This document shows positions 42,596-61,738 of a stretch of 64,000 bases of DNA, piece after piece. The translations under genes and the position numbers were made by a program. Origin of the DNA: Candidatus Liptonbacteria bacterium (GTDB lineage: Bacteria > Patescibacteriota > Minisyncoccia > UBA6257 > 2-01-FULL-56-20); contig JACQBP010000010.1 of assembly GCA_016194445.1 (NCBI GenBank), forward strand, positions 75 to 64,074, read 5' to 3'. Position 1 is the stretch's first letter, and each line of letters starts with the position of its first letter. The notes beneath the pieces were generated by a model. That model was not told where the DNA came from. It ran no database searches and saw nothing but the letters and a program-made list of their open reading frames with translations.

Positions 42596-44740
42596 TTATT
42601 TATTTTTGGCGGTTTGGTTGGTCAGCGTGTGCCAGACGAGTAGTAAAGGGCTGGCGACGAAGATGGATGAGTAAACACCGGTTGTGACACCGACTAAAAG
42701 AGTTAAGATAAAATATTTCAAGTTAATCGGCCCCAGGAGATAGAGAATAATCAAAACAATGATAAGGGTGAGCGAGGTGTTGATGGAGCGAGCGATGGTT
42801 TGGATGATGCTCTGATTAATAGTTTCGGCAAAGTCGGCTCGATTTTTGCTGACGATCAAATTTTCTCGAATGCGATCGAAGACAACAATGGTGTCGTGGA
42901 CCGAAAAGCCCATCACGACTAGAAGCGCGACGATAAAATTCGAATCAATTTCGATTTTTAAATAATGACCTAAAATCGCGATGAGACCAGCCGGGATGGC
43001 GATGTCGTGCAGTAAAGTAATCATGGTCACGACTCCATACTTCCAGGATGAAATGGGCCGGGAGACTTTTCGAAAAGCGTAAGCAATGTAGAGCGAGACA
43101 ATCACGATGGCGAGGATGATGGCGGTCACGGCGTTACTTTTAAGTTTTTGCCCAATCGAAGGTCCGATGGACTGAAAACTTAATTCTTCGAAGGAAGGAT
43201 AAGTTTTCTGCGCGGCTGCTTCTAAAGTGTGATGTTCGGCTTCGGTGGTGGTTTTAAAGCGAGCGAAAAATTGATTTTGGCTCGCATCCAGGTTGATGCG
43301 GATTTCGCTTATGTCACTGACAGCGGATTTAACAAAGCCTTCTAACTCTACGGTGGTGGGCTGGTTTTTTTCGATTTTAAATTGCCAGAGAGTTCCGCCC
43401 CTAAAATCGATACCTTGGTTAAAACCAAAACCAATAACGGCGAGTATCCCGGAGGCGACTAACAAACCGGAAACAGCGAGAAAAATTTTTCTTTTGGCGA
43501 TGATGTTCATGACAATTAGGTTATAGGTTGTAGGTGTTGGGTTGGCGCTGAACATACTCACCAGAACTCCGATTAAAAGGGTGAGGGCAAAGCCTCTTAC
43601 GAAACTCGAAGTGAGGAAGTAAAGGATCAAGGCCGTGATAATAGTCGAGATATTAGAGTCGCGAATGGACGGCCAGGCGCGCCGGAAGCCTTCTTCAATC
43701 GCGTTCGAACGAGAGAGTCCCCTCTTTATTTCTTCTTTGATTCTTTCGAAGATTAAAATATTGGCGTCAACAGCCATACCGATCGTAAGAATGAAACCAG
43801 CCAAACCAGCTAGAGTCATCGTCACGGAAAAGATTTTGAAAATGCCGAGGGTTAAGAAGGTGTAAATTAAAAGGGCGGATGAAGCAAAGACACCCAAGAA
43901 GCGATAGTAGGCGACCATGAAAAGCATCACTAAAAGGGTGCCGATCAAACCGGCGCTGAGCGCTCGGTTTAATGAATCAGTGCCGAGAGTCGCGCTCACG
44001 GTTTGCTGGTTGATTAGAGTGATAGGAGCCGGCAAGGCGCCCGCGTTAAAGCGTTCAACAAGACCCTGCGCTTCTTTGATGGTAAATTTTCCGGTGATCA
44101 CGGCTTGACCGCCAGAAATTTTTTGCTGAACGATGGGAGCTTCGATTAAGACGTTGTCGAGAAAGATAGCCAAGGGTTTACCGATATTAGCTTCGGTCAT
44201 CTGTTCGAAAATCGTAGCTCCTTCGCTGTTGAAGGCGATCGAAACTTGCGGCGCTTGAGTGGTTTGGTCAAAGGTGAGGGCGGCACTTTTTATATAACGG
44301 CCGGTCAGGTTAGTCGGGATGATTTCAGTTGAGGAACCGTTTTGATTGAGTTCGCGGAAGTCGAGAAGCGGAGTCAAACCAATTTGAGCGATGGCATCTT
44401 CCTTTTTTTTGATGCCGGCGAGTTCGACAATCAGATTGCTTTCTGCATTAGTTTTGGAGATGAAAACTTGGGGTTCGCTCACGCCGATTAGATTAACTCT
44501 TTTTTCGATCACATCTCGGAGGCCATTTAAAACGGAATCTTGATCCTTGGCCGGTACCTGGGCTAGATCAACTTTATAAATAAGATGGCTGCCGCCGACT
44601 AGATCCAGTCCGAGGTGCCAGGGTGACCACCGTAAACCGTAATTTTTGGGATAAATGAAAATGCCGGCTAAAACGGTTACGATTAAAATGAGAATTAAAA
44701 AGAGGCCTGGGTTGCGACGCATTGGTTGCGATTCTAACAT
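42596..44740 (-). CDS. secDF: fused protein translocase subunit SecDF
   Basis: 714 aa with SecD and SecF periplasmic and TM domains. It contains an in-frame AGGTKTY-type heptamer repeat (43518-43545) encoding PTPTTYNL. Confidence 0.85.
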   Translation of the reverse strand: MLESQPMRRNPGLFLILILIVTVLAGIFIYPKNYGLRWSPWHLGLDLVGGSHLIYKVDLAQVPAKDQDSVLNGLRDVIEKRVNLIGVSEPQVFISKTNAESNLIVELAGIKKKEDAIAQIGLTPLLDFRELNQNGSSTEIIPTNLTGRYIKSAALTFDQTTQAPQVSIAFNSEGATIFEQMTEANIGKPLAIFLDNVLIEAPIVQQKISGGQAVITGKFTIKEAQGLVERFNAGALPAPITLINQQTVSATLGTDSLNRALSAGLIGTLLVMLFMVAYYRFLGVFASSALLIYTFLTLGIFKIFSVTMTLAGLAGFILTIGMAVDANILIFERIKEEIKRGLSRSNAIEEGFRRAWPSIRDSNISTIITALILYFLTSSFVRGFALTLLIGVLVSMFSANPTPTTYNLIVMNIIAKRKIFLAVSGLLVASGILAVIGFGFNQGIDFRGGTLWQFKIEKNQPTTVELEGFVKSAVSDISEIRINLDASQNQFFARFKTTTEAEHHTLEAAAQKTYPSFEELSFQSIGPSIGQKLKSNAVTAIILAIVIVSLYIAYAFRKVSRPISSWKYGVVTMITLLHDIAIPAGLIAILGHYLKIEIDSNFIVALLVVMGFSVHDTIVVFDRIRENLIVSKNRADFAETINQSIIQTIARSINTSLTLIIVLIILYLLGPINLKYFILTLLVGVTTGVYSSIFVASPLLLVWHTLTNQTAKNK

Positions 44741-44800
44741 ATTGTTGATTACTTTGACAAGCGGTTTTTTGAGACTGGGGTTTGCTGTTAGAATTGGACT

Positions 44801-45400
44801 ATGGGCAACTTAACTTTAGTCAAAGGTAGGGCGTTAGTGATTGTGGCGCATCCGGATGATGAGACAATTTGGATGGGCGGGACGATTTTGGCTAATCCGC
44901 AGGTAGAGTGGACGATTTTTTCTTTGTGTCGAGCGGATGACACGGATCGGGCGCCAAAATTTAGAAAGGTGTGCCGGTTTTTGGGCGCGCGAGGCGCGAT
45001 TTCGGATTTAGACGACGAAGAAGTTTTGAGTTTGCGCGAGAGCTTGCCGGAGATTCGCCGACGAATTCGCCGGGCGATTGGATCGGCGCGATTTGATTAT
45101 GTCTTCACACACAGCTATAATGGAGAGTACGGACATCCGCGACATCGAGGCGTCAGTCGAGTGGCGCGAGAGATGGTGCGGAGCGGAGAGATCAAGACGC
45201 AGGCGCTTTATAATTTCAGTTACGAGTTTGATGAAGGGAAAAATCTTTGCCGACCGCGTGAGGAGGATGTTTTTGTGAAGTTATCCCCTACCCTCTTCCG
45301 AAAGAAACAGAAAGTTATCAGCGAGATTTACGGATTTAGGAAATCGACATTTGAGTATATGACTTTGTCAAAAATTGAATACTTCAAATCGATTAAATAG
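44801..45400 (+). CDS. PIG-L/LmbE family N-acetylglucosaminyl deacetylase
   Basis: VIVAHPDDETIWMGGT motif and a downstream H-containing motif. Confidence 0.8.
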   Translation: MGNLTLVKGRALVIVAHPDDETIWMGGTILANPQVEWTIFSLCRADDTDRAPKFRKVCRFLGARGAISDLDDEEVLSLRESLPEIRRRIRRAIGSARFDYVFTHSYNGEYGHPRHRGVSRVAREMVRSGEIKTQALYNFSYEFDEGKNLCRPREEDVFVKLSPTLFRKKQKVISEIYGFRKSTFEYMTLSKIEYFKSIK

Positions 45401-45405
45401 TTAGT

Positions 45406-46551
45406 ATGAAATCAGTTATTCTTTACGCCTATCCGCCGGAGCCGGACGGGTTAAGTCAGCAGGGAGATATGCTCTATCGCGGGATGAAGGAAAACGGCGA
45501 GGAGGTTTGGCCGGTGCATTTGTCGAGCGAGTTTCAGAAGGAATTTTTATATAAATTTTATAAGCCGGATGTGGCGATCGGGGTCGGATTTTGGGGGCAG
45601 ACCCAGGATTTGATTGAGCATCCGCAGAAGTATGGCGTGCAACCGGTGCCGTGGTTACTCGCGGACGGCTGGGTGGCCAATCATCACAAAATCATTTCGG
45701 ATTTGCCTTTGGTTTTTACGACGAGCGATTGGGTGCGAAAGACATTCGCGCGGGACGGGGTGGACACGAAAAACTTTCAAACGCTATACATTGGAGTTGA
45801 CACGGAACTTTTCAAACCGATTTCGCGAGACGACGCGAGAATTTTAAAAATTAAGGAGATGCTCGGAATCAAGCCGGAGGAAATTGTGATTATGACGGTT
45901 GGGGGGGACGTGACTTCGAAAGGGGCGCAGGAAGTGTTGAAAGCGCTCAAGAAGGTGGATCAGGAATTTAAGAATTGGAAGTACGTTTGCAAACTTTGGG
46001 GCGGGCAGAGCGCGGATGATCATTACGACGATGAGATGGTTTTGCTTGAAGAGCTCGGCGATTCGAAGGACAAAGTGATCTACCTTGAAGGTTCGATGTC
46101 GCGAGAGTTTATGCCTCTGCTTTTGAACGCGTGCGATATTTACGCGGCGCCCTCGCGACTCGAAGGATTTGGGATGATTCAAGTGGAGGCGCAGGCCTGC
46201 GGGAAACCGGTGATTTCGATTGATGAGATGGGGCCGAAGGAGACGATTTTAAACGGCGAGACGGGATTTTTGGCAAAAGTGGCGGAGACGGTAGATTTAA
46301 CTTCGGAATGGGCGTACGTTGGGATGGGTTTTGAGGAGGATCACCGGATTGAATTTGAGAAACCAAAGACGTTTGCTTACCGCGCGGATGAAAATGAGAT
46401 CGCAGAATTTTTACTGAAGCTTTTAAAAGATCCAGATCTGCGGGCTAAGATGGGCGCGCGAGCGCGAGAACACGCGGTCAGCAAATTTGAGTATAGAAAA
46501 ATCGCCAAACAGATGGCGGAGGTGATTAAAAATAAATTTGGATTAAGTTAA
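45406..46551 (+). CDS. GT4-family (group 1) glycosyltransferase
   Basis: EGFGMIQVEAQACGKPVISI EX7E motif. Confidence 0.8.
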   Translation: MKSVILYAYPPEPDGLSQQGDMLYRGMKENGEEVWPVHLSSEFQKEFLYKFYKPDVAIGVGFWGQTQDLIEHPQKYGVQPVPWLLADGWVANHHKIISDLPLVFTTSDWVRKTFARDGVDTKNFQTLYIGVDTELFKPISRDDARILKIKEMLGIKPEEIVIMTVGGDVTSKGAQEVLKALKKVDQEFKNWKYVCKLWGGQSADDHYDDEMVLLEELGDSKDKVIYLEGSMSREFMPLLLNACDIYAAPSRLEGFGMIQVEAQACGKPVISIDEMGPKETILNGETGFLAKVAETVDLTSEWAYVGMGFEEDHRIEFEKPKTFAYRADENEIAEFLLKLLKDPDLRAKMGARAREHAVSKFEYRKIAKQMAEVIKNKFGLS

Positions 46552-46606
46552 AATTGGGAGGATTTTTTGAATATCGGATAAGTTTCATTTAAGAAATTAT
46601 ATCACT

Positions 46607-46640
46607 AAAAAGAAACCCCGGCCGTGATGGTCGGGGTCTG
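46607..46640 (-). terminator. rho-independent terminator for minus-strand transcripts
   Basis: CCCGGCC-gtgat-GGTCGGG stem (one G·U pair) followed on the minus strand by TTTCTTTTT. Confidence 0.5.
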
Positions 46641-47005
46641 CGCTACTTCGATTACAGATTTACTAGAAGTAGCGATGGCATGGTTGGCAGTAGCTGGCGT
46701 AGTCATCCAGGTCCTGCCCTTTTGTCCCACAGGTGGGGCATTTTGCTCTTCGGAATGATAAGAAAAATCTGAGAGAACAAAGACCCACGACAACAATAAT
46801 GCATGCATCAACCACTCGTCCTCCTCTGTATTCTCTGATTATTTCGTTGTCTTACCTGAAGGCCAAATTCCCTCAAGAAAGACAACGAAAGATCTCAAAT
46901 TTCTAGTCTAATTATACACTATAATTCTATGCCCTGTCAATAGTCGAAATCGGCTTGATTTTGCTAGCTAAAATGGGATAACCCTTTCGTTATTTTGAAA
47001 AAGAC

Positions 47006-47359
47006 TTAGTTTTTATGGCTAACGGTTTTCTCGAGTTTTACCACTCGGCGTTCTAATAAGGCAAACTCGTCGTGGGCAGTTTTTACTTTTAGATCACTGC
47101 GGATTATGCTTACGTTCTCTTTTACTTCGGAGATATCTTCGGTGTTGATTCGAATGTTAATTTTCATTTCCTCTATGTCTTCTGTATTTCTGGCTACCAT
47201 ATCTTTAATTGCCGTAAGTTGCCTTTCCATACCTACCATCGATTCAGCGATTAGTTTTACCTGGGACTCGAAGCTTTCAATCGCAACGCCTAAGTAGCGC
47301 TGAAAATCCTGTGCTTGCTTAGTTAGAATTTGCTCGAGTTTTTGATCATTTATTTCCAT
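47006..47359 (-). CDS. coiled-coil hypothetical protein (117 aa)
   Basis: Heptad-rich sequence with no recognisable domain. Confidence 0.45.
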   Translation of the reverse strand: MEINDQKLEQILTKQAQDFQRYLGVAIESFESQVKLIAESMVGMERQLTAIKDMVARNTEDIEEMKINIRINTEDISEVKENVSIIRSDLKVKTAHDEFALLERRVVKLEKTVSHKN

Positions 47360-47384
47360 AGTTAGATTTTATTCTTATTGAAAG

Positions 47385-48647
47385 TTAGTTGTCAAATGTA
47401 GCCAGTTTTTTAGTTTTGAGTGCGTTATACGCATACAAATACATTCCGGCGGACCAGGCTTGGTAGGGAGAAGAACCGCCTTCGGGCTTGCCGGTTTTGC
47501 CATCGAGCCACTCGTAAAATCCGAACTCCTTAAGGTTTTTTTCATCCCCCACCTTTTTCAAATGTGAGGGACTGCAGCGGGGAGTTTTAAATACTTCTCT
47601 GTTTGCCTGCGCAAGAAGTTTAAGCTCCTTCTCTGCCTTCTTGTATCGCCTTGTTTTGACGAGGGCGGCCACATAAAATCCGCCGATGAAGGGCCAGATG
47701 CCGGCGTTTAGATAGTGGAAAGCTTCGCGGGCTTCGCATTCGTCGAAGTAAGAGCGCCATTCCTTGTCCCCTTTTCGAATGGGTGGCCAGATGGCTTTAC
47801 AGGGGTAGGGGCGATTGATTTTATTTTTTTCGATGTAGTTTAAAATTGAGTTGGCGATTTGGGGAGTGGCGAGGCCGGTTGTAATCGCTAAAAGATTGCC
47901 GAGAGTGTCGAACCAACTTTCTTGCTCTTTGTGTTTGGGATTAGGGCCGTGAGTTTTCCAGACCCAGGGACGATAAAACCCTAGAGACATGTCGAATAGA
48001 GACAAGTACTTTTGGGTTTCGCCGTTAACGATTTTTTTGAGGTGGGCGGCTTTTTTCTTCTGGCCAGTTAAATTTAGAACGGCATAGTAGAGGGCTTCGG
48101 TGTTTATCACGCGGCCGTATTTGTGTGGGAAGGCATCTTGCCATTCCATAGTTGGCTGTTGGACGAGCAAACTATCTTCGTTCGGATCTTGGTATTCGAG
48201 CCAGGTGAGGGCCGCCTTTAAGCGCTTGGCGTGCTTTTTGAGGATGGATTTTTCTTTGTAAGTTTTGGCGTAAGTGTGGAGGCCGATGATCCACCAAAGA
48301 GTGGAGTCGATAGAATTAAAAGTAATGTCGGAGCGACGCTCGAGGTTGTAGCTTCCGACAGCGTTGGGGATTTGGCCGTGCTTGGATTGGTTTTGGGCTA
48401 GGAGTTCAAGGCTTTTTCTGAAGGTGATTTTTAACTTGTCACTTTTCACATTTAACGTTGCGACTCCAAGTCCTGTAATCATGCTGTCGCGGGCCCAAGT
48501 GGCTTCGTAGCCGCCGGGTAAACCGGAGGCGTAGAAGCCGGTTTTTTTGGCGCAGTGTTCGAGGACCTGGATGGCTTTTTGGTAAGCCATCTCCGTTGCT
48601 TGAATGTTGGAGTGTTGGATTGCTTGATTGCGAGAATGTTGTTTCAT
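47385..48647 (-). CDS. (alpha/alpha)6-barrel glycoside hydrolase, GH125-like (putative exo-alpha-1,6-mannosidase)
   Basis: LPGGYEATWARDSMITG resembles the GH125 ...AMWLRDS motif. At 420 aa, the length fits GH125. Confidence 0.5.
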   Translation of the reverse strand: MKQHSRNQAIQHSNIQATEMAYQKAIQVLEHCAKKTGFYASGLPGGYEATWARDSMITGLGVATLNVKSDKLKITFRKSLELLAQNQSKHGQIPNAVGSYNLERRSDITFNSIDSTLWWIIGLHTYAKTYKEKSILKKHAKRLKAALTWLEYQDPNEDSLLVQQPTMEWQDAFPHKYGRVINTEALYYAVLNLTGQKKKAAHLKKIVNGETQKYLSLFDMSLGFYRPWVWKTHGPNPKHKEQESWFDTLGNLLAITTGLATPQIANSILNYIEKNKINRPYPCKAIWPPIRKGDKEWRSYFDECEAREAFHYLNAGIWPFIGGFYVAALVKTRRYKKAEKELKLLAQANREVFKTPRCSPSHLKKVGDEKNLKEFGFYEWLDGKTGKPEGGSSPYQAWSAGMYLYAYNALKTKKLATFDN

Positions 48648-48758
48648 TTGTTCAATTATAGCATCGTTGAGTACAAAAAATGAATGGGTAATTTTTCCAG
48701 CATTCCATTATAAATGAATATTCTCTTAAGATGGAACGATGGTGAAAAGTGAAAAGAA

Positions 48759-48790
48759 AACCGCCCAGCACACACCATGTGGGCAGTTTT
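48759..48790. terminator. bidirectional terminator-like hairpin (GCCCAG...TGGGC) with U-tracts on both strands
   Basis: It lies downstream of the 48824-49648 minus-strand gene. Confidence 0.4.
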
Positions 48791-48823
48791 CTTTTTCTCA
48801 CTGAAAACGTCACTCTATACAGA

Positions 48824-49648
48824 TTAGAAGACGGTGACACTGGCTACATTAGAGTAGCTTGAGCTCCCCCCTGAATTATAGGCTCTTACTCGATAGTAAA
48901 TTGTTCCTGTTGCATTATTGCTATTGGTGTAAGTGGTTATATTCGAACCAACTGTACCTATTTGACTGAAGCTAGAAGTGCTGTAAAAGCTGCTCTCTAC
49001 CGCGAAACCATCCTCATATTCGGAATTGTCCGTCCAGCTTAAATTTTTAATTGTCCCGCTTGCGTTTGCCGTTAGATTTGAAGGAGCATTAAGCGAGGTG
49101 TAGGTGATTTTAGTTGAGAGGCGACTTACACGCGCTCCTTTTGACCCAGAAACAAAAACAAATCCAGATTGGAGCGTCGTTGACCCATTTTTTATATTAG
49201 GGATTAATAAGAATTCGTAAGGTACTTGGTCGGTGGGAGTTGTGCCACTGAGATAATATTCCCCATCATCTCCACTGTCGCTACCGTTTAATCTATAAAA
49301 AACATTTACGTTTGAGGTTCCTGAGCCGGAAAGGTGATTAGAGGCGCATGGCGTAATTTCGATTGCAGTTATAGCTGATCCATTTGGTACCGAAGAAAGA
49401 TTTATACTGAACGATTCCCTGTTGTTCGTAGCTGTTGTATATATATAATCAGTATTTCCGTTGCACGATGTTTCATCTACGAGAGTGTATTTTAATGTAC
49501 TACTCCCACTTGATGCCGTCCAAGCACTATAAAAACCATTTAAGACGGGGAGAAGATCTGCGGTTGTATCTGCATAAATTTTAATTACTGTTGCAATTGT
49601 CAGTACGGAGAAAGCCAATAAATAAACGGTTAATTTTTTTCTAGACAT
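48824..49648 (-). CDS. secreted protein with a C-terminal fibronectin type III-like domain
   Basis: Signal peptide, and at the C-terminus SAPSNLTANASGTIKNLSWTDNSEYEDGF...YYRVRAYNSGGSS FN3-like sequence. Confidence 0.55.
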   Translation of the reverse strand: MSRKKLTVYLLAFSVLTIATVIKIYADTTADLLPVLNGFYSAWTASSGSSTLKYTLVDETSCNGNTDYIYTTATNNRESFSINLSSVPNGSAITAIEITPCASNHLSGSGTSNVNVFYRLNGSDSGDDGEYYLSGTTPTDQVPYEFLLIPNIKNGSTTLQSGFVFVSGSKGARVSRLSTKITYTSLNAPSNLTANASGTIKNLSWTDNSEYEDGFAVESSFYSTSSFSQIGTVGSNITTYTNSNNATGTIYYRVRAYNSGGSSSYSNVASVTVF

Positions 49649-49752
49649 TTTTATTTGTGTTTTTGATTTTTTATTCGACCTTTACCTCTTCCAATGCTAG
49701 TCTGGCAAGTAGATACGAAATGGTGGATTCGGCGCCTTGGTTCCGCGCTTTA

Positions 49753-49998
49753 CTACTTCGGATGTTTTGAGATCGTGATTACGAAGACAACATCTTTTTT
49801 CATGGTAAAGAAAAATCGGTAGTTTTTATCGATTCGTCCCTGCCAAACATTCTGGGATTCGTCATATTTTTTAGCGTGAATCGAAGGGTGTCGGAGATTT
49901 TTTATCAACAATGAAAATTGTTTATCTGCCTTCGTTTTTAGCTCTTTCGATAGATCGAGGTAGTCGTCTAGAGCTTTTTTCGCAAAAGCTAACTTCAT
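49753..49998 (-). CDS. type II toxin, YoeB/Txe (RelE superfamily)-like
   Basis: MKLAFAKKALDDYLDL...WQGRIDKNYRFFFTMKKDVVFVITISKHPK aligns with YoeB (MKLIW...WDDYLYW...WSRRI...HRLVY...H). Confidence 0.6.
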   Translation of the reverse strand: MKLAFAKKALDDYLDLSKELKTKADKQFSLLIKNLRHPSIHAKKYDESQNVWQGRIDKNYRFFFTMKKDVVFVITISKHPK

Positions 49999-50007
49999 CT
50001 GCTTATT

Positions 50008-50238
50008 TTAACGATTTTTAAGAGCAGTTTTGAATGCTTGAATATTTTTGAATGGGCCGAAAACTCGCCCGAGTTCGATGTCTTTAAGGCCTTCGAAAAT
50101 CGCTTGGTTTAAAACACTTCGCGATTTGGTTGAAATTGAAGCCCGGCCAGTTTTCACTGACTTAATTGGAATTTTAACAATGAGGTATTCTTTGGTTTTC
50201 TCGATAGTGACTTGATTCATTTGGTTTAAAGATACCAC
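50008..50238 (-). CDS. putative cognate antitoxin, with a possible AbrB/MazE-like N-terminus
   Basis: 76-aa ORF 9 nt upstream of the toxin gene (antitoxin-toxin order). It carries an EYLIVKIPIK motif. Confidence 0.45.
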   Translation of the reverse strand: MVSLNQMNQVTIEKTKEYLIVKIPIKSVKTGRASISTKSRSVLNQAIFEGLKDIELGRVFGPFKNIQAFKTALKNR

Positions 50239-50286
50239 AACTGCTTTCGTGGAAGCAAATTTAGGGAAGTTAGGGTGCTGGAATGA

Positions 50287-52506: not shown

Positions 52507-52590
52507 GTTAAGAAATTGAAAATTTAAAAAGCAAAATGAAAAATTTTGGTATCCCTTTGGGAGGATTGTTTAATTTTCTAACGGGATTCA

Positions 52591-53640: not shown

Positions 53641-53847
53641 CCCGTTAGAGATAGGAAACGATTACGTTTCTGCGGAAGTCAGGCGCGACCTTTAGTTGTT
53701 GCGAAATCATTTTTACAAAATTAGATTTAATTCGTTGATGGGTCATCTCTACCGGGATTCATTTCGACCGCGATTCAAACGCAATTCTCCGGACCGCTCT
53801 CGGCTCGGACTTACCTAAATTGTATCACATCTGGATTTAATTGAAAT

Positions 53848-53880
53848 GGAAAAACCCCTGATGCGTGATCAGGGGTTTTC
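53848..53880. terminator. rho-independent terminator (AAAAACCCCTGAT-gcgtg-ATCAGGGGTTTT) downstream of tRNA-Lys
   Basis: Perfect 8-bp stem flanked by A- and T-tracts. Confidence 0.65.
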
Positions 53881-53888
53881 GGTTACAG

Positions 53889-53962
53889 TGCCTCCTGTAG
53901 GATTTGAACCTACGACCATCTCCTTAAAAGGGAGCTGCTCTACCGGACTGAGCTAAGGAGGC
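53889..53962 (-). tRNA. tRNA-Lys (anticodon UUU)
   Basis: Manual fold: 7-bp acceptor stem GCCTCCT/AGGAGGC, D-stem GCTC/GAGC, anticodon loop CTTTTAA, T-arm GTAGG-TTCAAAT-CCTAC, discriminator A. CCA is not encoded. Confidence 0.8.
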
Positions 53963-54111
53963 ATTAATTTTTAGCAACGAACCAATCGATAAAGCGAAGC
54001 CTTATTAAAGGGAGCTACCCCTCCCGCGCTAAAGCTTCGGGCGGGCAAGTCTGCCGGACTGACCTGCCTATCGACAAGCAGAGCTCCGGGCGCAAATAAT
54101 CGAGAATTATT

Positions 54112-55203
54112 TTACAGCTCTTTCTCGATTTCTTCAAGGATACTGCGAGTTTTGCCACTAACTTTTTTCGGGGCTTTGATGGTGAAATCGACGAGCATGT
54201 CTCCTCGGCCGAAACTGCCGAAGCGGGGCATGCCTTCGTTTTTTATTTTGAGATCATCTTTCAAATTAAAGTGAGATGGGATTTCGGCGTAAATTTTGCC
54301 GCCGGAGATGGTCGGGATTTCGATTTTTTTGCCCAGCAGAAGATCAGAAATTTTTAATTCTTTTTTGACGATTAAATCATCGCCGCGGCGGACGAAGTGG
54401 TTGTGGGGAGTGATTTTCACTCGAATATAAAGGTCGCCCGTGCCCGCGCCGCGCTCACCAGTTTCACCAGCGCCGGTGATTTTGATGATTTGATCGTTTT
54501 GAATGCCGGGAACGATTTCGAAATGGATTTCTCGATCGTTTTGTTTGCGGCCCGAACCGGAGCAGGCGGGGCAAGCTTTGTTGGGAATTTGGCCAAGCCC
54601 CTGGCACTTTTTACACGTTTTGACTTGCATAAAGCTGCCAAAGAAGGTTCGGCTTTGTTCTTTGATTTCACCTTGGCCGTCGCAAGTGGAACATTTGGTA
54701 AAACCGGCGGACTCATCTGCGCCTTTACCTTTGCAAGTCACACACGGAATATAGGTTTTAATTTTGGTTTTTTTGGTCGTGCCGCGAAAAGCTTCTTCGA
54801 GGGTGATTTCGGTTATGAGTTCTAGATCAGAGCCTTTTTGATAAGTTTTGCGGCGAGGTCGAACGCCTATGTTTTCGAAAAAGCTTTCGAAGACATCGTT
54901 TAAGTCGCCAAAGTCGCCGTAGAACGAGCCATCAAAATTGCCGCCTTGGAATCCTTCCCAGCCGCCGGCGCTTTGAGCTCCACTGGCGCCAAAGGGTTCG
55001 GCGGTGCCATAACGGTCATAGTTGGATCGCTTGGTTTTGTCCGAGAGAGTTTGGTAAGCCTCGTTGATTTCTTTGAATTTGCCCTCGTTGCCGCCTTTTT
55101 TATCGGGATGGTGCTCGTGGGCCAGCTTGCGATAAGCTTTTTTGATTTCGTCGTCGGAGGCCGCGCGACTGACACCTAGGATTTTGTAGTAATCTTTTGC
55201 CAT
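54112..55203 (-). CDS. dnaJ: chaperone DnaJ
   Basis: J-domain (YYKILGV...HPDK), G/F region and four CxxCxGxG repeats. Confidence 0.9.
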
Positions 55204-55212
55204 ATTGAAAAT

Positions 55213-56208
55213 TTATAAAGTTAAGTTTTCTTTCGTGCGTGTTTCGCCGGAGATGAAAATAAAACCCGCCGTTAAAAGAAGTTGGATGACAAGATAATTG
55301 AGACCAGCGGCGAGAGGCACAAGAATCACGCCTAAACTGCGGATAGTGAGGAAAAGGATGATGGTCCAAACAATGCGAAATTGGTCGCTGAATTGGTTCT
55401 TGATCTGTTCGATCTTAGATGAAACAATTTTATACGCGATGTCGACTAGGTTTTCGCTCCCTTTGTTTTCAATTTTTAATTGTTCGTTGAATTTGGCGAT
55501 GATGCTTTCGATCGCAGCTTGTTTGATTTTTTCTTGATTCGGAACGGGCAGGTTTTTGTATTCGGGGGTTTTTTCAATTTCGGCTTCGGCTAGTTTTGAA
55601 GCAAAGTCGCTAACCGTACCGTTTAAATTAACTTCCGGATAAATTTTACTGACCACGTCTGAGGCCCAGTTAAAAACAGAACCGAATTTAGCGGGGGAGA
55701 TAAAATTCTCTCGAGCGTCAAACTTGGGAAAATAGATAATCGCGGCCATCAAAGCCAGGGCGCTAACAATTTTACTAATCGTGATACGACTGACCCTGAA
55801 ATAACTGGGTTCGAGAGTGTTTGAAACTTCTCGCCGGCCGTTCATTTCTCCCCAAACTAGAAAGAAGAGAGTTAACCCAAAAGCGGTTACAAGCAAACCG
55901 TTCGGCAGATTTAGAAAAAATAAGAAGAGAGCCAGAGCTTCTAGAACTAAAACAAGAGTCCGGCGTTTAAGGCTTTTGATGAGGAGAACCTCGAGGGTGG
56001 AGAGAATGGAGAAGATGATAAGGATTAAGACGGGGATAGGAAAGGTGACTCGGTCGTTTAGAAAGAGGTAGTAGCTTAAACTAAAAAGAGCCGCAGTTAA
56101 AACGGTAAGGGTGTCGAGGACCAGACTCTTGTAGAAACCGCGCGGAGCACTGGCTTTTTCGACAGGCGTTTGATTAATAAAGTTTTCCGGCGGCGGAGAA
56201 AATTTCAT
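55213..56208 (-). CDS. polytopic membrane protein of unknown function inserted between dnaK and dnaJ
   Basis: 331-aa ORF with at least five hydrophobic helices. It is separated from its neighbours by only 9-10 nt on either side. Confidence 0.5.
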   Translation of the reverse strand: MKFSPPPENFINQTPVEKASAPRGFYKSLVLDTLTVLTAALFSLSYYLFLNDRVTFPIPVLILIIFSILSTLEVLLIKSLKRRTLVLVLEALALFLFFLNLPNGLLVTAFGLTLFFLVWGEMNGRREVSNTLEPSYFRVSRITISKIVSALALMAAIIYFPKFDARENFISPAKFGSVFNWASDVVSKIYPEVNLNGTVSDFASKLAEAEIEKTPEYKNLPVPNQEKIKQAAIESIIAKFNEQLKIENKGSENLVDIAYKIVSSKIEQIKNQFSDQFRIVWTIILFLTIRSLGVILVPLAAGLNYLVIQLLLTAGFIFISGETRTKENLTL

Positions 56209-56217
56209 CGCTGATTT

Positions 56218-58083
56218 TTAACTTGGAGTCCCGGGTTCTTTGGGCGGACTCGTATCTTGGGGCTTCTCCTCATTATACATGCTTTGTCCGATTTTTTGAA
56301 TTTCGGCGGAGAGCGTGGTTGAAGCGGATTGAATGGCTTCAAGGTTATTGCCCGCGGTGACTTTTTTGAGCTCCTCGATTTTCTCGGTAATGGATTTCTT
56401 GACGTCTTCGGGAACCTTGTCGCCGGCGTCACGAAGAGATTTTTCGGATAGATAAACTAGACTCTCCGCCTGATTTTTGGCTTCGATTAGGGATTTTTTT
56501 TCGGCGTCCTCGGTGGCGTGCTCGAGCGCTTCTTTTTTGAGTTTTTCGATTTCATCTTTAGAAAGCGCCGTGGAAGCCTCGATCCGAACAGACTGAGATT
56601 TGCCGCTAGCCTTATCAATAGCTTTAACGCTTAAGATGCCGTTTGCATCAATGTCAAAGGTGACTTCGATTTGAGGCAAACCGCGGGGCGAGGGCGGCAG
56701 ACCGTCTAGAATAAATCGAGCGAGGGTTTTGTTGTCCGAAGCTAGCGGCCGTTCGCCTTGGAGGACATGAATTTCGACAGCCGGCTGATTGTCGGCGGCC
56801 GTTGAGAAAATTTGGCTCTTGGAGGTGGGAACGGTGGTGTTTTTTTGGATCATCGGGGTGGCCACGCTACCTAAAGTTTCGATGCTTAACGTAAGAGGCG
56901 TGACGTCTAAAAGTAAAATGTCCTTAACGTCACCCTGGAGGATGCCGCCCTGAATGGCAGCGCCGACAGCCACCACTTCGTCGGGATTTATACCTTGATG
57001 TGGATCTTTACCGAAAAGCTTTTTGACCGCTTCAACGATAGCGGGCATGCGGGTTTGGCCGCCAACTAAAATGACTTCATTGATTTCGCTGAGTTTGAAA
57101 CCAGCGCCTTTCGGAGGGGCGGCGGTGACGGTTTCTTCGGTTAACTTAACCGAGCGATCAATATATTCACGAACCAGTTCTTCGAGTTTGGCTCGCGATA
57201 GCTTCATCGTAAAATGCTTGGGGCCGGAGGCATCCGAGGTGATGTAGGGCAAATTGATTTCGGTTTCGACCGCGACAGAGAGTTCATGCTTGGCGCGCTC
57301 GGCACCTTCCTTGAGACGCTGGAGCGCGAGCGCGTCTTTCGATAGATCAATCCCTGCTTGTTTTTTGTATTCGGCAACGAGATACTCATTGATCTTTTTG
57401 TCAAAATCGTCGCCACCGAGGTGGGTGTCGCCACCAGTGGCTTTAACTTCGACGGTGTTGTCGCCGATTTCTAAAACTGAGATATCAAAAGTGCCACCCC
57501 CAAAATCATAGACGACAATTTTTTCGCTTTTTTGTTTGTCGAGGCCGTAGGCCAGCGCGGCGGCAGTGGGTTCGTTGATGATGCGGTTGACTTTAAGGCC
57601 AGCGATCTCGCCGGCGTTTTTGGTGGCTTGACGTTGCGAGTCATCGAAATAGGCCGGAACGGTAATGACGGCTTCTTCCACTTTTTCGCCGAGTTTGGCT
57701 TCGGCGTCTGTTTTTAATTTTCGAAGAATTTCAGCCGAGATGGCTTCGGGAGAGTACCACCCATCGCCCATCTTGACTTCGACACCGCCCGTCGGACCGG
57801 CTTTAATTTCATACGGGAGCCAGACTTTGTCGCGCTCTATTTCGGGATCGGTAAATTTTCTGCCCATCAGACGTTTAACCGAAAAAATGGTGCCTTTGGG
57901 ATTCGTAACGGCCTGACGTTTGGCCAAAGTGCCGACAATGCGCTCGCCGGCCTTACTCACCGCTACAATCGAGGGGGTAGTGCGGTTACCTTCGGCGTTT
58001 TCCAAAATCTCCGGTTCGCCTCCCTTCATCACGGCGACGGCGGAATTAGTGGTACCGAGATCGATTCCAATTATTTTGCTCAT
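56218..58083 (-). CDS. dnaK: chaperone DnaK (Hsp70)
   Basis: [18 protein letters not shown] and related Hsp70 signatures. Confidence 0.95.
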
Positions 58084-58181
58084 ATTTATGTTTCTATCTT
58101 GTTTTGCGACTTTTTGGCTACAGAATACGGATTTTTACGAATATACTAAATAATAAGTTAAATTTTTTTTGTATTTCGTAG

Positions 58182-58679
58182 CTAACTTTGACCTTTGGAT
58201 ATCTTGATTCGAGTGGGTCTTAAGATTTTACCATGAAGTCGGTATCCGGGCTCAATGATTTCGACTATCACTCCCGGCGGTTTATCGGATTCGACTTCGG
58301 TAACGGCTTCGGCGAGATTAGGGTCGAAGGGATCACCGGGTTTGACGTTGATTTTTTCCAAGCCCCGCTTCTTTAAAATATCTTCAATCTGGGCGCGGAT
58401 GATATAGATACCTTTTTCGATGGGCCCGGACTTCTCGAGAGCTGCTAGGCCAAGGTCGAAATTATCGATTACGCCGATTAATTCCCGAATCAAATCCTCG
58501 TTGCCGTATTTGGCGATTTCTCCGAGTCGAGCGAACTCTTCTTTCTTATAGTTGATGAAGTCGGCTTTGGCTCTTTGCCAACCGCTTAGATACGTATCTC
58601 TTTCTTCCTGGACTTTGGTGAGTTCATTCTCGGGCTCGTTTGGCTGATCTGGGAATGGATTATTTGGTTCTTCGTTCAT
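58182..58679 (-). CDS. grpE: nucleotide exchange factor GrpE
   Basis: Recognisable GrpE coiled-coil N-terminus and C-terminal beta-domain. It is positioned between hrcA and dnaK. Confidence 0.85.
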   Translation of the reverse strand: MNEEPNNPFPDQPNEPENELTKVQEERDTYLSGWQRAKADFINYKKEEFARLGEIAKYGNEDLIRELIGVIDNFDLGLAALEKSGPIEKGIYIIRAQIEDILKKRGLEKINVKPGDPFDPNLAEAVTEVESDKPPGVIVEIIEPGYRLHGKILRPTRIKISKGQS

Positions 58680-59358
58680 TTAAATTTTTAAGACCTTTAA
58701 AGGTTTTGACGACTTTTTTGTAGTTCATTCTCTTTGGACCAATGGCCAGGATTAAAATATTTTCACCGTCCAGGTAGCATCTTTGAGCGACCACCGCCAA
58801 CTCCCGACTTTCAGTAACCGGACTTTTTTGACCAATGAAAACTTGGATGGGACAAGCTTCGAAAATTTCGTCGTTTAAATTTTCGACTTTTTCGTCTAAT
58901 TCTTCGAAGTCACGAATAATTTCTCTGATTTCATTTTGATTTTCCCAGTCCAATCGATTCAAAAGGGTTTCGAGACCAGTTTTGTAAATCCGATCTTCGT
59001 TTTTTTGCTCCAGCGCTCCTAAAAGACCGAGTTGATTGGAAAAAAGCGTTAAAAAGTTTGGCCAATCGGCGCTTCGGATCGACTGAAGGAAAACTTCGTC
59101 GAGATTCGGTTCACTTTCAACCGCTAAAAGTTTTTCGGCAAAAATTTCGTAAGCCTTGTCACTTGGGACACGGCCGGCGGAATGGTAGGGTTGTTCTAAA
59201 AATCCGGAGTCAGTTAGCGTTTCGAGTTCGTGGCGAATCATGGCGGGTTTAATGCCAAAGTTATATTTTTCGTAAAGCCAGCCCGAAGAAACCGGCGAGC
59301 CGGATTTGATAAAAGATTCGATGACGGCGTTTAAAATGTTTTCGGTGCGTGGATCCAT
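58660..59358 (-). CDS. hrcA: heat-inducible transcription repressor HrcA (short form, 232 aa)
   Basis: N-terminal winged-helix ILNAVIESFIKSGSPVSSGWL. It is the first gene of the hrcA-grpE-dnaK operon. Confidence 0.75.
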   Translation of the reverse strand: MDPRTENILNAVIESFIKSGSPVSSGWLYEKYNFGIKPAMIRHELETLTDSGFLEQPYHSAGRVPSDKAYEIFAEKLLAVESEPNLDEVFLQSIRSADWPNFLTLFSNQLGLLGALEQKNEDRIYKTGLETLLNRLDWENQNEIREIIRDFEELDEKVENLNDEIFEACPIQVFIGQKSPVTESRELAVVAQRCYLDGENILILAIGPKRMNYKKVVKTFKGLKNLNERRTK

Positions 59359-59483
59359 CCCGGTTAGAAAATTAATTTCTTGTTCTGATTCGACAAATTG
59401 ATATTTTCAAATGATTTTAGGTTTATCTCAATAGGTTTAATTTTCTAACGGGATAAATCTTTCTTGAAACTATTATAGGGCGA

Positions 59484-59510
59484 TTAGCAAGGTTGTCAAG
59501 GGACTGCTAA
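59484..59510. promoter_or_regulatory. degenerate CIRCE-like operator TTAGCAAGG-N9-GACTGCTAA upstream of hrcA
   Basis: Matches the CIRCE consensus TTAGCACTC-N9-GAGTGCTAA at the outer TTAGCA/TGCTAA hexamers with the exact 9-nt spacing. It lies ~125-150 nt upstream of the hrcA ATG. Confidence 0.5.
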
Positions 59511-59557
59511 CGAACAGGTTTTAGGTTATAGGTGTTAGGTTTTAGTAAAAACGAAAA

Positions 59558-59585
59558 GGGACGGATTGCTCCGTCCCGTCTTTTG
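59558..59585 (-). terminator. rho-independent terminator of the zinc-finger minigene operon (GGGACGG-attgct-CCGTCCC plus a T-tract on the minus strand)
   Basis: Perfect 7-bp GC stem followed by TTTTCGTTTTT on the minus strand. A-rich on the other side. Confidence 0.6.
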
Positions 59586-59627
59586 GTGTTGAAATCTAAC
59601 TCATAGTTTTGCCAAAACAGTTGCTCC

Positions 59628-59855
59628 TCAGGGAATACCTTCCCCTCTTCTTCTGGGCACCACGCGAAATTGACGTAATCGTACCATGGCTAAGACTCTT
59701 CGATTGGCTAACCTCCTTTCGATCGCTTCTTTTCGAGCTTGAGGACTCCACGCGCCACACTTGTCGCATTTTTCGGGCGACAAGTGCGAGGTTCGACCGC
59801 AGCAGTCACATCGCCATTTATAAGCGGTTGTATCTAAAACACATCCTTCCGCCAT
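59628..59855 (-). CDS. RanBP2/NZF-type zinc-finger miniprotein A (75 aa)
   Basis: WRCDCCGRTSHLSPEKCDKC, i.e. W-x-C-x2-C-x3-S-x6-C-x2-C. A GGAGG ribosome-binding site sits 8 nt upstream. It is fifth in a tandem array of paralogs. Confidence 0.6.
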   Translation of the reverse strand: MAEGCVLDTTAYKWRCDCCGRTSHLSPEKCDKCGAWSPQARKEAIERRLANRRVLAMVRLRQFRVVPRRRGEGIP

Positions 59856-59876
59856 TCTTCTTCCCTCCTTTCTCGA

Positions 59877-60089
59877 TCACTCGATGGTGTTGAGGATTTC
59901 ACCGCTGAATCTGTAAACGCCGCAACGACATCGGCCGACTTTTCTTTGGTTGACGTTACCGCAGTACTTGCATTTCCATTGATCACGCTTTGCACTCGAG
60001 GAGTTATCTCCCGAATCCCTGAGAAGATGAGCCCAGATGAGAGCTCTGATTTCTCGGAGAGTGACGGCGACTCCTTTCCTTTTTTTCAT
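59877..60089 (-). CDS. RanBP2/NZF-type zinc-finger miniprotein B (start taken at the internal Met with an AGGAGG ribosome-binding site; the track ORF extends to 60194)
   Basis: WKCKYCGNVNQRKVGRCRC motif. AGGAGG lies 9 nt upstream of the ATG at 60087-60089. Confidence 0.55.
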   Translation of the reverse strand: MKKRKGVAVTLREIRALIWAHLLRDSGDNSSSAKRDQWKCKYCGNVNQRKVGRCRCGVYRFSGEILNTIE

Positions 60090-60102
60090 CTCAATTACCC
60101 TC

Positions 60103-60327
60103 CTATAGCTGCGGCTTTTCGGTCTGGCACTTACGGCATCTCTTATCTTTGTCGGTGTTGCGCTCGCTGCAGTGTTCGCAGGTCCAACTCGCAATGATTG
60201 GATCTTCGGTTTCCAAGGTTAGCGTCTGTTGATCCTGGTCGGTCTGAGAGAGAGGAAAAAACAAGTAGCAGCGGTTACCGCGGCGAACGTGGATTTCTAC
60301 TGGGGCGTTCGGGTTGCGTTTGGGCAT
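60103..60327 (-). CDS. RanBP2/NZF-type zinc-finger miniprotein C (74 aa)
   Basis: WTCEHCSERNTDKDKRCRKC is an exact match to W-x-C-x2-C-x3-N-x6-C-x2-C. Confidence 0.6.
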   Translation of the reverse strand: MPKRNPNAPVEIHVRRGNRCYLFFPLSQTDQDQQTLTLETEDPIIASWTCEHCSERNTDKDKRCRKCQTEKPQL

Positions 60328-60484
60328 TTTTTCTCTCTTCCGGGATCACCGCTGGCTCTTCGACCGGTCGTTTGCCGTCGCACTTAGGATTTAGGCAGTA
60401 GTTCATGATGATGCCGTTTTCCCGCCTACACTTGGGGCATCGCCAAATAAAAGGTGATACTTTCGACTTGTTTTGCCGCGCCAT
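60275..60484 (-). CDS. RanBP2/NZF-type zinc-finger miniprotein D (69 aa)
   Basis: WRCPKCRRENGIIMNYCLNPKC motif. The start ATG overlaps the upstream stop (TAATG coupling). GAGGTGA ribosome-binding site. Confidence 0.6.
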   Translation of the reverse strand: MARQNKSKVSPFIWRCPKCRRENGIIMNYCLNPKCDGKRPVEEPAVIPEERKNAQTQPERPSRNPRSPR

Positions 60485-60684
60485 TAATCACCTCGCTGGT
60501 TTATACGCGTTGGACGCACATAGAGTCCGATTTCACCTGGGTGAGTCGGACTGGCTACGAGTTTTCCCGTTCCGGGTTTGCTTTTGCCACAGTTACAACA
60601 AATCAAGCGATATCCATGGTTCGTAATCCGACACTCTGGATTCCCACAGCGCCAATTGAAGACCGAGTTGCGTTTTTCTGGCAT
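60484..60684 (-). CDS. RanBP2/NZF-type zinc-finger miniprotein E (66 aa), first gene of the array
   Basis: WRCGNPECRITNHGYRLICCNC motif and a GGAGGT ribosome-binding site. Confidence 0.6.
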   Translation of the reverse strand: MPEKRNSVFNWRCGNPECRITNHGYRLICCNCGKSKPGTGKLVASPTHPGEIGLYVRPTRINQRGD

Positions 60685-60786
60685 ATGACCTCCGTTTTGA
60701 CAGATTGGCTTAATGACAACGTTCTAGCTATAGCTTATCGTTTAGGGGGTTTCTGTCAACTTTTCAAAATATGTTAAACTTAAAGG

Positions 60787-61695
60787 ATGAATAGCATTCA
60801 GGGGAAGGTTAAATGGGTCAATATTTTTAAACCGACAACCGCCGATTTGAGTTGGCTCCGTAAAGAATTAAACCTCCACCGTTTAATCCTAGAAGAGCTG
60901 AAAGGACCATCCTCTAGAGCGCGGGTGGAGGTCAACAAAAATTACCTTTACCTAATCTATTATTTCCCGATTTACGATCCGGTGGAGCGAGTTTCGAAGC
61001 GGAGCGAAATTGATATTTTAGTGACTAAGAGTGAGGTGGTGACGGTATCTTATGAAAAGATCGAAGTTTTTGATGAGCTTACAAAAACTCTAAACAAAAA
61101 TTCCCGAGCGCTGGAGGATAGTTTAAAGCTCACTCACAAAATTATTGATTCCCTTTTGGATTTTCAGCAACGACAGATGATTCACATTCGCGAAAAGTTG
61201 GAAACTGTGAGCGTGGAACTTTTTAAAGAGAAGGAGCGAGAGCGAGAACAGGTGCTCTTGGAACAAATTTCCTATCTGAAGCGAGATATTTCGCAGTACC
61301 GGTTGATTATCAAACCGCAGAAACATATCCTCGAATCTTTTTTCCAAGTCGGTTGCAACTTTTTCAATCAAGCGAATTGCTCTGTCTATATGAATGACTT
61401 GATTGGGGAGCATATGAAGATTACCGATCTGCTCGAAGACTATCGCCAAGCGATTGAAGATTTTGAAGATACAAATAACCAGCTTATCAATATCAAAAAC
61501 AGCCAACTTGTTAAGACCTTCACGATTTTGGCGTTTTTAACTTTCCCGATGATGCTTTTCGCGTCACTTTTTAGCATGAACACGCGTGGGACTCCGATCG
61601 TGAACAACCCGCGGGCTTTTTGGATTGTACTCGGTGTAATGATCATAGCCATGACCGGAATGTTTGCGTATTTTAAAAAGAAAGATTGGCTCTGA
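60787..61695 (+). CDS. corA: CorA-family magnesium transporter, with a SMN variant of the GMN motif
   Basis: Two C-terminal TM helices with FSMNT preceding the loop. N-terminal cytoplasmic domain with coiled coil. Confidence 0.7.
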   Translation: MNSIQGKVKWVNIFKPTTADLSWLRKELNLHRLILEELKGPSSRARVEVNKNYLYLIYYFPIYDPVERVSKRSEIDILVTKSEVVTVSYEKIEVFDELTKTLNKNSRALEDSLKLTHKIIDSLLDFQQRQMIHIREKLETVSVELFKEKEREREQVLLEQISYLKRDISQYRLIIKPQKHILESFFQVGCNFFNQANCSVYMNDLIGEHMKITDLLEDYRQAIEDFEDTNNQLINIKNSQLVKTFTILAFLTFPMMLFASLFSMNTRGTPIVNNPRAFWIVLGVMIIAMTGMFAYFKKKDWL

Positions 61696-61738
61696 AAAAC
61701 TAGGTTTTAGGTTGTAGGTGACAGGTTTTAGATGAGAT

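Follow-up and report, generated by a model that had tools for sequence, protein, structure and literature searches.

Here we show that short tandem arrays of heptanucleotides are strongly over-represented, at period 7 only, in a 64,000-nucleotide stretch of DNA (positions 75 to 64,074 of contig JACQBP010000010.1, assembly GCA_016194445.1; hereafter the window) from Candidatus Liptonbacteria bacterium, a member of the Patescibacteria within the Candidate Phyla Radiation (CPR). The data favour the view that these arrays are heptanucleotide simple sequence repeats (long SSRs) of the short tandemly repeated repetitive (STRR) type, which would arise in place in a 7-base register and be filtered by selection, and that they probably represent mutational footprints and not a designed system. 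Cyanobacteria have been known to carry heptanucleotide repeats since 1990, and since 2007 such repeats have counted as an oddity of bacteria in general. The result is robust rather than artefactual, and it widens the range of a phenomenon already on record without constituting a new system. Its significance lies in the extension of the period-7-only signal to ultra-small Patescibacteria, whose genomes hold very few replication and repair genes.

The analysis covered 64 kb of this genome together with slices of about 20 kb from relatives. Under a strict threshold, the window contains seven period-7 arrays versus 0.03 ± 0.18 expected from 30 second-order Markov simulations, and none at period 6 or at periods 8-15. 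Our own scan with a looser cut-off yields 11 period-7 arrays (~2.7-5 copies), none at period 6 and three at period 8, while Tandem Repeats Finder assigns period 7 to 15 of its 47 rows for the window. Distances from one AGGT to the next peak at 7, 14 and 21 nucleotides (12, 11 and 5 cases, respectively) over a background of mostly 0-3. An earlier sequence-only reading of this DNA had noted tandem 7-mers dispersed across the window, with AGGTKTY units prominent among them, and had compared them with the STRR repeats of cyanobacteria. Every array position that it listed is present in the sequence; the excess over base composition holds in the window and also in related genomes, the AGGT family is enriched (AGGTKKY units in three window arrays versus 0.16 expected with letter-shuffled units), and the comparison with STRR repeats is apt. 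Further period-7 arrays, beyond those listed in that reading, lie at 6071, 12300 and 25580 and, within murC, at 29394 and 29577. The arrays of the window are the following.

6071-6089, + strand: A-rich TAAAAAA TAAAAGA TAAAA; intergenic, weak and borderline
7338-7368, + strand: AGGATTT/TAGAATT (TAGAATT/TAGGATT), ~4.4 copies; occupies the gap between a stop codon at 7334 and the ATG at 7374
7447-7478, - strand: inverted partner of the preceding array, ~4.6 copies of TATCCTA (+) or TAGGATA (-)
12300-12323, + strand: ACAAGAG, ~3.4 copies; in frame in the gene of an M17 leucyl aminopeptidase (PepA)
25580-25614, + strand: TAGAAAA, 5 copies; begins 2 nt past the stop codon of an M23 peptidase gene
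29394-29422, + strand: (GATCGAG)x4.1, perfect; in frame in a murC loop (site A), encoding LNDRGSRIEDRGLR
29577-29610, + strand: AGGTTTC x2, AGGTGTC x2, AGGTGT (x4.9); in frame in a murC hairpin loop (site B)
35166-35193, + strand: (AGGAAGT)x4, perfect; the final fmt codons and the TAG stop lie inside the array
43517-43545, + strand: AGGTTAT AGGTTGT AGGTGTT GGGTTGG; antisense to secDF, a gene of the - strand
59516-59545, + strand: AGGTTTT AGGTTAT AGGTGTT AGGTTTT AG; intergenic, with a repeat resembling CIRCE (controlling inverted repeat of chaperone expression) on one side and a terminator on the other
61701-61731, + strand: (T)AGGTTTT AGGTTGT AGGTGAC AGGTTTT AG; occupies the gap that runs from the corA stop (61695) to the cysS start (61739)

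The names SecDF, HrcA-GrpE-DnaK, CorA, CysS, Fmt and MurC, and the two cohesin-domain proteins, are backed by Pfam; the identities of murC, ftsW, murG, gltX and def derive from precomputed Pfam hits. In-gene arrays of the window occupy four places: the signal-peptide/transmembrane segment of the cohesin-domain open reading frame (ORF) at 7374..8288, which contains the 7447-7478 array; a C-terminal loop of PepA, in which the 12300-12323 array encodes ...SSQETRDKG...; the linker joining the SecD and SecF halves, where the 43517-43545 array is read on the reverse strand as SecDF residues ...SANPTPTTYNLIV..., with NPTPTTYNL in the linker; and two loops of MurC. Within arrays, like units adjoin in an a-a-b-b manner (AGGTTTC AGGTTTC AGGTGTC AGGTGTC; TAGAATT TAGAATT TAGGATT), a pattern that unit-by-unit duplication would give.

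The comparison set comprised 80 murC-centred loci, in which ORFs were called greedily, and the nearest murC loci among GTDB genomes belong to Patescibacteria/Parcubacteria metagenome-assembled genomes (MAGs); loci and contigs are denoted by L and a number. Across 842 kb of CPR loci, 81 period-7 arrays were found versus 3 in Markov simulation, with approximately zero at periods 8-12. Counts in 30 CPR loci are over-dispersed (chi2 = 107, df 29, p = 6e-11), ten loci having none and two having 10-11, and five loci of CysS relatives (65-70% identity, 56 kb) contain no arrays. Loci of Thermodesulfobacteria, Aquificae, Pelagibacter and Omnitrophota, 345 kb in all, hold 2 period-7 arrays versus 1 expected. 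Desulfobacterales-type loci are array-rich, with 41 in 132 kb; L055 (Desulfobacterales bacterium HSG2) carries 27 heptamer arrays in 21 kb, with up to 26 copies and several inverted pairs, and its units (ACAACTG, GTCAGTG, AACTGAC and TGGTCAG) resemble cyanobacterial STRR and Beggiatoaceae TAACTGA repeats.

Arrays of the CPR loci have a median of 4.0 copies and a bias in location. Intergenic DNA and gene edges hold 39 of the 115, a 3.3-fold excess over the 10.3% of DNA that is non-coding (p = 8e-12), and the other 76 lie inside ORFs. In-ORF arrays occur in either orientation, with 30 scored as sense and 20 as antisense; since the sample of relatives is centred on murC, coding arrays at MurC loops are over-counted. 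This bias fits a filter of selection, and the in-gene arrays map to insertions in loops and linkers.

The less expected part of the finding is that the same loops of an essential protein are repeatedly occupied, in frame, by heptamer arrays of differing units. In the MurC alignment, three array-bearing loops (sites A, B and C) are all insertions relative to outgroups, and the site A array of the window is an insertion relative to other CPR MurC sequences. Site B is a hairpin between RRFEYKG and DDYAHHP, where the array of the window encodes RFQVSGVRCQV and adds 4 residues compared with outgroups; alignment to a solved MurC (9ir5) likewise opens a gap of 4 residues here. The site B loop measures 8 residues in outgroups and in eleven CPR species, and 12-23 residues in array carriers. 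A 7-periodicity of at least 0.8 is seen there in 14 of 47 CPR sequences and in 0 of 32 outgroup sequences, and at least 10 different units are involved. They include AGGTKTC (the window and L018), AGGTATC (four perfect copies in L033), AGATTCA (L002, L005 and L025), GAAATTR (L006), GCAAATC (L008), AAATTTC (L013), AAGTTCA (four perfect copies in L040), AACTAAA (L027) and the reverse-complement ACCTAYM (L011 and L019). In-frame arrays at recurring loops such as these offer a concrete route by which CPR proteins could gain lineage-specific insertions. In L003, L020, L024 and L048, the murC insertion consists of an array, a spacer and an inverted array, read through in frame. These palindromic inserts are located at 10945-11027 in L003, 6638-6720 in L020, 1606-1696 in L024 and about 10920-11020 in L048, with spacers of 28-36 nt, and take forms such as (AGGAATC)n ... 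(AATTCCT)n.

Array content turns over between species. At the fmt stop, the perfect (AGGAAGT)4 of the window corresponds to diverged AGTGAGT/AGTAAGT/AGAAAGT units in L002 and to no array in L003; likewise, after the M23 peptidase gene, TAGAAAA x5 in the window is matched by GAATTRT x5 in L002 and by none in L003. Three relatives that hold the region upstream of hrcA (L631/L632, L633 and L634) have no counterpart of the 59516 array beside CIRCE, which is itself conserved. Seeds are found in relatives at orthologous positions. At the murC site where the window has (AGGTTTC)2(AGGTGTC)2AGGTGTT, the array-less L028/29/31 read GGTTTCAAGGTGTTC; where L040 has (AAGTTCA)4, L038 reads AAGTTCAAAGG; and L633 carries single-copy seeds upstream of cysS (GAGGTGTTATTTTAAAT) and beside CIRCE (AATAAGGTTTTCC). 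Taken together, the seeds, the turnover and the a-a-b-b units point to growth in place from local seeds and not to import of a ready-made element. Exact-protein look-ups with the proteins MurC and L27 returned only one Logan contig (SRR12113409), 100% identical to the window, and a scan of metagenome contigs for the fmt array, anchored on its flanks and allowing a variable gap, gave no match.

Units of CPR arrays share a bias towards A-R-R-W-W-T-Y (AGGATTT, AGAAATT, AGGAATT, TAGAATT and others), amounting to 5.3 bits versus 4.47 ± 0.09 for letter-shuffled units. A full match is found in 34% of CPR units versus 6% of random genomic 7-mers, and the bias survives split-sample cross-validation on non-murC arrays. 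Outgroup arrays have another motif. TAGR-containing units number 33 in CPR arrays versus 15 expected. The AGGTKTY family, treated as an entity by the sequence-only reading, is indeed enriched locally: in addition to the window arrays, AGGTKKY units account for 8 arrays across CPR loci versus 0.6 expected on the same basis, and for 4 of the 5 arrays of L018. It is not a self-contained family, being part of the A-R-R-W-W-T-Y bias. The further idea that AGGTKKY is special globally was rejected, because permuted control units match as often: viral contigs gave 88 AGGTKKY matches versus 71 and at least 120 for two permuted control units (with 31 for a period-8 version and at least 120 for a period-6 version). 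Metagenome contigs spanning 33-71% GC gave at least 120 AGGTKKY matches. Single AGGTKKY heptamers occur 62 times on the + strand of the window and 19 times on the - strand; by a mononucleotide estimate ~46 are expected on the + strand, and the ~48 that lie outside arrays are near this expectation.

Neighbouring arrays are often reverse-complementary, as in 48 of 134 pairs in metagenome loci (among the matches listed), with 7 such pairs in outgroups and 5 in CPR loci. The idea that inverted arrays enclose a conserved mobile element was considered and rejected: the spacers consist of ordinary intergenic sequence without homology from locus to locus, with one match among all pairs, which is an argument against a single mobile element. 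On metagenome contigs L083-L202 (33-71% GC, among the matches listed), AGGTGTC/AGGTTTC arrays very often form inverted pairs 10-230 nt apart that flank ordinary intergenic DNA, often with a terminator hairpin (for example, L090 2792-2942 and L092 646-803; further examples are L114 467-652 and L201 3240-3432). In the window, the arrays at 7338-7368 and 7447-7478 can pair around the start codon, with a predicted minimum free energy of -36.9 kcal/mol and a modest z-score of -2.35.

The two most similar arrays of the window, at 59516 and 61701 (27 of 30 positions identical, same orientation), bracket ~2.15 kb (59546-61700) that is extra compared with the CysS relatives and comprises a terminator, a small Cys-rich ORF on the - strand, a 107-aa ORF and corA. 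These relatives have hrcA and cysS side by side in divergent orientation, separated by 166-860 nt (L631 5834-6001, L633 3038-3899, L634 5397-5848). The segment may have been inserted at or next to an array, or the arrays may have formed at the insertion junctions. Copying of a whole array between the two sites was considered and set aside; the 27/30 identity is not independent evidence for it, because most of that identity is the consensus unit. The features surrounding the 59516 array are listed below.

59499-59472, - strand: perfect promoter TTGACA-16-TATAAT upstream of hrcA-grpE-dnaK; context, outside the repeat family
59484-59510, - strand: CIRCE-like inverted repeat TTAGCA-N15-TGCTAA, with the -35 box of the hrcA promoter within its spacer
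59558-59577, no strand assigned: bidirectional intrinsic-terminator hairpin adjoining the 59516 array; context

Upstream of the hrcA promoter, the array itself stands 17 nt from the -35 box, and on its other side the bidirectional terminator follows after 12 nt. The HrcA ORF of the window has 232 aa and matches only the C-terminal HrcA domain in Pfam; HrcA of the relatives is equally short (228-231 aa).

Under the favoured reading, a local seed of one or two copies would be duplicated in a 7-base register by slipped-strand mispairing during replication or repair. Recurrent gain and loss would then keep adjacent units similar even as the sequence of the unit drifts from one species to the next, occasional strand switching may place an inverted partner array nearby, and selection would clear harmful arrays. 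The surviving arrays are distributed over intergenic gaps, gene ends and in-frame surface loops or linkers, essential proteins included. This scheme draws on the observed period specificity, location bias, insertion character, species turnover and seeds; slippage and whatever sets the 7-nt register are both inferred. The propensity for period 7 is probably set by a heritable feature of the replication or repair machinery, because it is 7-specific, strong in some lineages and absent in close relatives. Effects on expression, for instance if the AGG in the final unit serves for ribosome binding at 7374 or if the array by the hrcA promoter has any influence, are regarded as incidental.

Several points weigh against in-place slippage as a complete account. 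Slippage by polymerases alone should act in all lineages, but the excess is unevenly spread, as seen in the over-dispersed CPR counts, the array-free CysS relatives and the 2 arrays in 345 kb of controls. The A-R-R-W-W-T-Y bias common to CPR units is not predicted by simple slippage. A strand-switch step is needed besides slippage, both for the frequent inverted array pairs and for the presence of the AGGT family in both orientations, in different species, at the MurC loop. Nothing in the data accounts for the register being 7, and ongoing slippage in this organism is something that we likewise infer, one assembly of the species being on record. Because a generic polymerase property explains neither patchiness nor unit bias, a lineage-specific determinant may be involved. 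A more far-reaching version of this idea, which we consider doubtful, is that a lineage-restricted 7-nucleotide-register activity in parts of the CPR, and separately in some Desulfobacterales, cyanobacteria and others, continually seeds, expands and inverts heptamers genome-wide, essential genes included; its agent would be either an altered part of the replisome or repair machinery or an enzyme dedicated to the task. If true, this activity would be a major source of lineage-specific loop insertions in CPR proteins and would address the question, standing since 2007, of what lies behind the preference of bacterial long SSRs for 7 nt. The natural contrasts offered by array-rich species beside array-free relatives make the cause more tractable; with minimal sets of replication and repair genes in CPR genomes, and with sister lineages that are either rich in arrays or free of them, phylogenetic profiling could identify the determinant.

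The sequence-only reading had allowed for three roles of the repeats, namely regulatory spacing, phase variation and the footprint of a repeat-generating enzyme. A footprint fits best among them, and the evidence favours expansion of seeds in place over a dedicated enzyme or mobile element as its origin. A dedicated repeat-generating or insertional process, with the arrays as scars at breaks or junctions, is in our assessment unlikely; the candidates would be a lineage-restricted enzyme (a reverse transcriptase, a primase-polymerase or a break-repair polymerase making templated direct and snap-back insertions) or a tiny mobile element. Such a process would agree with the patchy, all-or-none phylogenetic distribution at period 7 only, with the shared unit bias, and with the inverted configurations described above, namely the frequent inverted pairs in metagenome, outgroup and CPR loci, the array-spacer-inverted-array inserts in murC of L003, L020, L024 and L048, and the AGGT family facing both ways at the same MurC loop in different species. 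It could also explain why the two most similar window arrays bracket a corA segment that relatives lack. Set against this are the same-sequence seeds at orthologous sites of array-less relatives, the identical units side by side, as in local duplication, and the ordinary, non-homologous spacers of the inverted pairs, together with the lack of conserved flanks and target-site duplications. A Pfam scan of 40 ORFs within the 64-kb window gave no match to a reverse transcriptase, transposase or recombinase family, and one to a LAGLIDADG endonuclease.

Functional cis-elements are a more improbable explanation. The heptamers might be sites for a protein, such as a regulator that recognises the 7-nt period, a role suggested for S1/Csp/Csr-type proteins at TAACTGA repeats; alternatively, AGG in a position resembling a Shine-Dalgarno (SD) sequence might tune translation, TAG might provide stops in all frames after genes, or arrays might act as elements upstream of promoters. 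The positions of several arrays invite this interpretation: those at 7338-7368 and 61701-31 end just 5' of starts (ATG 7374 and ATG 61739) with AGG in an SD-like position, the former ending 6 nt before its ATG with the final AGG 5 nt from the start; the 7338/7447 inverted pair can sequester the start codon in its predicted hairpin; and the 59516 array immediately precedes the -35 box of a perfect sigma-70 promoter. TAGR units are over-represented in CPR arrays, several arrays come after a stop codon in the sense orientation, and the unit bias is common to several species. Conservation speaks otherwise, in that the array is missing from the conserved CIRCE/promoter region of the three relatives holding it, orthologous gene ends have no arrays or different units, and the same genes occur in array-rich and array-free genomes. 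About two thirds of CPR arrays lie inside ORFs, sense and antisense, the z-score of the hairpin is modest, and an Rfam scan of the window found one tRNA-Lys only and no RNA family overlapping any array. The arrays are not conserved regulatory elements, because at orthologous sites units differ or arrays are missing; the proposed regulatory role fits poorly on this ground, and for the same reason the description as a genome-wide short-tandem-repeat system, apt as to the dispersed heptamer tandems, overstates the case with the word system. Phase-variation (contingency) loci, where changes in copy number would switch genes by frameshift or promoter spacing, are very improbable. A 7-nt unit does shift the reading frame, one array spans a stop codon (fmt), two lie in 5' regions, and copy number and unit vary between species. 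Against this, arrays have only 3-5 copies (median 4.0), those inside genes sit in essential housekeeping genes (murC, secDF, pepA) and always in frame, and no array was found in a typical contingency gene or in the spacer that separates -35 from -10 in a promoter. It is the low copy number and the in-frame placement in the essential murC and secDF that make this third suggestion unlikely. For annotation, such arrays should not be taken as regulatory sites or phase-variation switches without further evidence.

Expansion of seeds in place, as favoured here, relates the arrays to several repeat families. The canonical STRR units are CCCCAGT, TTGGTCA and CAACAGT, and these heptanucleotide sequences of cyanobacteria were reportedly described by Mazel et al. 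in 1990. Common to both are tandem 7-nt units in many dispersed copies, with several unit families per genome; a location mostly outside genes or at their edges may be shared as well. In contrast to STRR sequences, the host here belongs to the Patescibacteria and is not a cyanobacterium, the units are A/T-rich A-R-R-W-W-T-Y heptamers (AGGTTTT, AGGATTT, TAGAAAA and others) along with AGGTKTY, AGGAAGT, GATCGAG and ACAAGAG, and the arrays have 3-5 copies, many of them in frame inside housekeeping genes. Rickettsia palindromic elements are 100-150-bp elements with a conserved consensus that spread as copies, and Ogata et al. are said to have described them in 2000 as in-frame repeat insertions in protein genes. 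They resemble the present arrays in that in-frame repeat DNA is tolerated, surface-exposed, in essential proteins, and some MurC insertions here are palindromic; they differ in that the sequences here vary by site and species and appear grown in place from local seeds. Contingency SSRs sit in a promoter spacer or the 5' part of the ORF of a dispensable surface or restriction-modification gene, which is not the placement seen here.

Heptanucleotides of Calothrix are mentioned in PMC4692102. In the parts of Mrazek (2007) conveyed by PMC4679880 and PMC4692102, the long SSRs in greatest excess in many prokaryotes are heptanucleotides, and slippage promoted by a 7-nt polymerase footprint is the proposed cause. 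Rehm et al. 2015 (PMC4692102) described GGGAATC / GGGGAYT repeats of Xanthomonas and Nostoc, with inverted pairs in Xanthomonas and between-species variation at fixed intergenic sites. As far as these accounts extend, long SSRs of the Mrazek type have units of 5-11 nt with 7 dominant, which agrees with the excess at period 7 only seen here; inverted pairs, and occurrence at the same site in relatives with variation in length and sequence, are likewise shared, and an intergenic bias may be. The same accounts concern large, often GC-rich genomes with units capable of forming G-quadruplexes, whereas the host here is a small-genome CPR MAG of ~45% GC with no G-runs of 3 or more in the units and a large coding share. 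At least 4 runs of at least 3 G characterise the GGGAATC/GGGGAYT repeats; units here never exceed GG, and many contain a single G or no G at all (TAGAAAA; AAATTTC of relatives). Formation of G-quadruplexes was ruled out on the lack of such G-runs, and because G-poor units reach the same copy numbers. The TAACTGA direct repeats of marine Beggiatoaceae, some cyanobacteria and Bacteroidetes (MacGregor 2015, PMC4679880) also form short sets (2-6 copies), often just 5' of starts at the SD place, with stop codons in the unit and a patchy phylogenetic distribution without an evident transfer mechanism. Unlike them, the arrays here comprise several unit types and abut a start codon in 2 of 11 cases (7338-7368 and 61701-61731); the TAACTGA unit is absent from the window, and AACTGAC-type units occur only in Desulfobacterales L055. 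Judged by unit sequence and host, which both differ, the arrays would be STRR-like heptanucleotide long SSRs outside the named STRR, TAACTGA and GGGAATC families. As the sequence-only reading had supposed, no publication linking heptamer repeats with Patescibacteria was found in the literature searched, making this a new host clade and a new unit bias for a known kind of repeat.

Other features of the window were noted in passing. GC skew is positive in all 4-kb bins (0.06-0.26) over positions 1-64000, those of 35-59 kb included, where genes of the - strand predominate; it is strong and does not depend on gene orientation. An orientation of arrays with the replication strand was considered and not upheld: the purine-first motif lies on the G-rich strand in 10 of 11 window arrays, and the split of 30 versus 22 in CPR loci lacks significance. 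A perfect 38-nt palindrome (TTACTACACTATTTCGCGA|TCGCGAAATAGTGTAGTAA) at 35224-35261 separates the convergent fmt and a 590-aa ORF, and an independent Logan assembly stops inside it, at about 35249. The LAGLIDADG homing endonuclease is encoded by a free-standing ORF of 168 aa (28082-28588, + strand) between a BNR/sortilin-repeat protein and murC, directly upstream of the latter. Two paralogous TrwB/VirD4-like type IV coupling-protein ATPases are encoded at 13645-15537 (+), this one with a treble-clef zinc finger, and at 37693-39162 (-), and a gene for the competence channel ComEC lies at 16198-17634. At the left end of the window, a 1691-aa ORF (23-5098, + strand) without a Pfam match is a compositional outlier, with ~57% G+C versus ~45% in the rest of the window.

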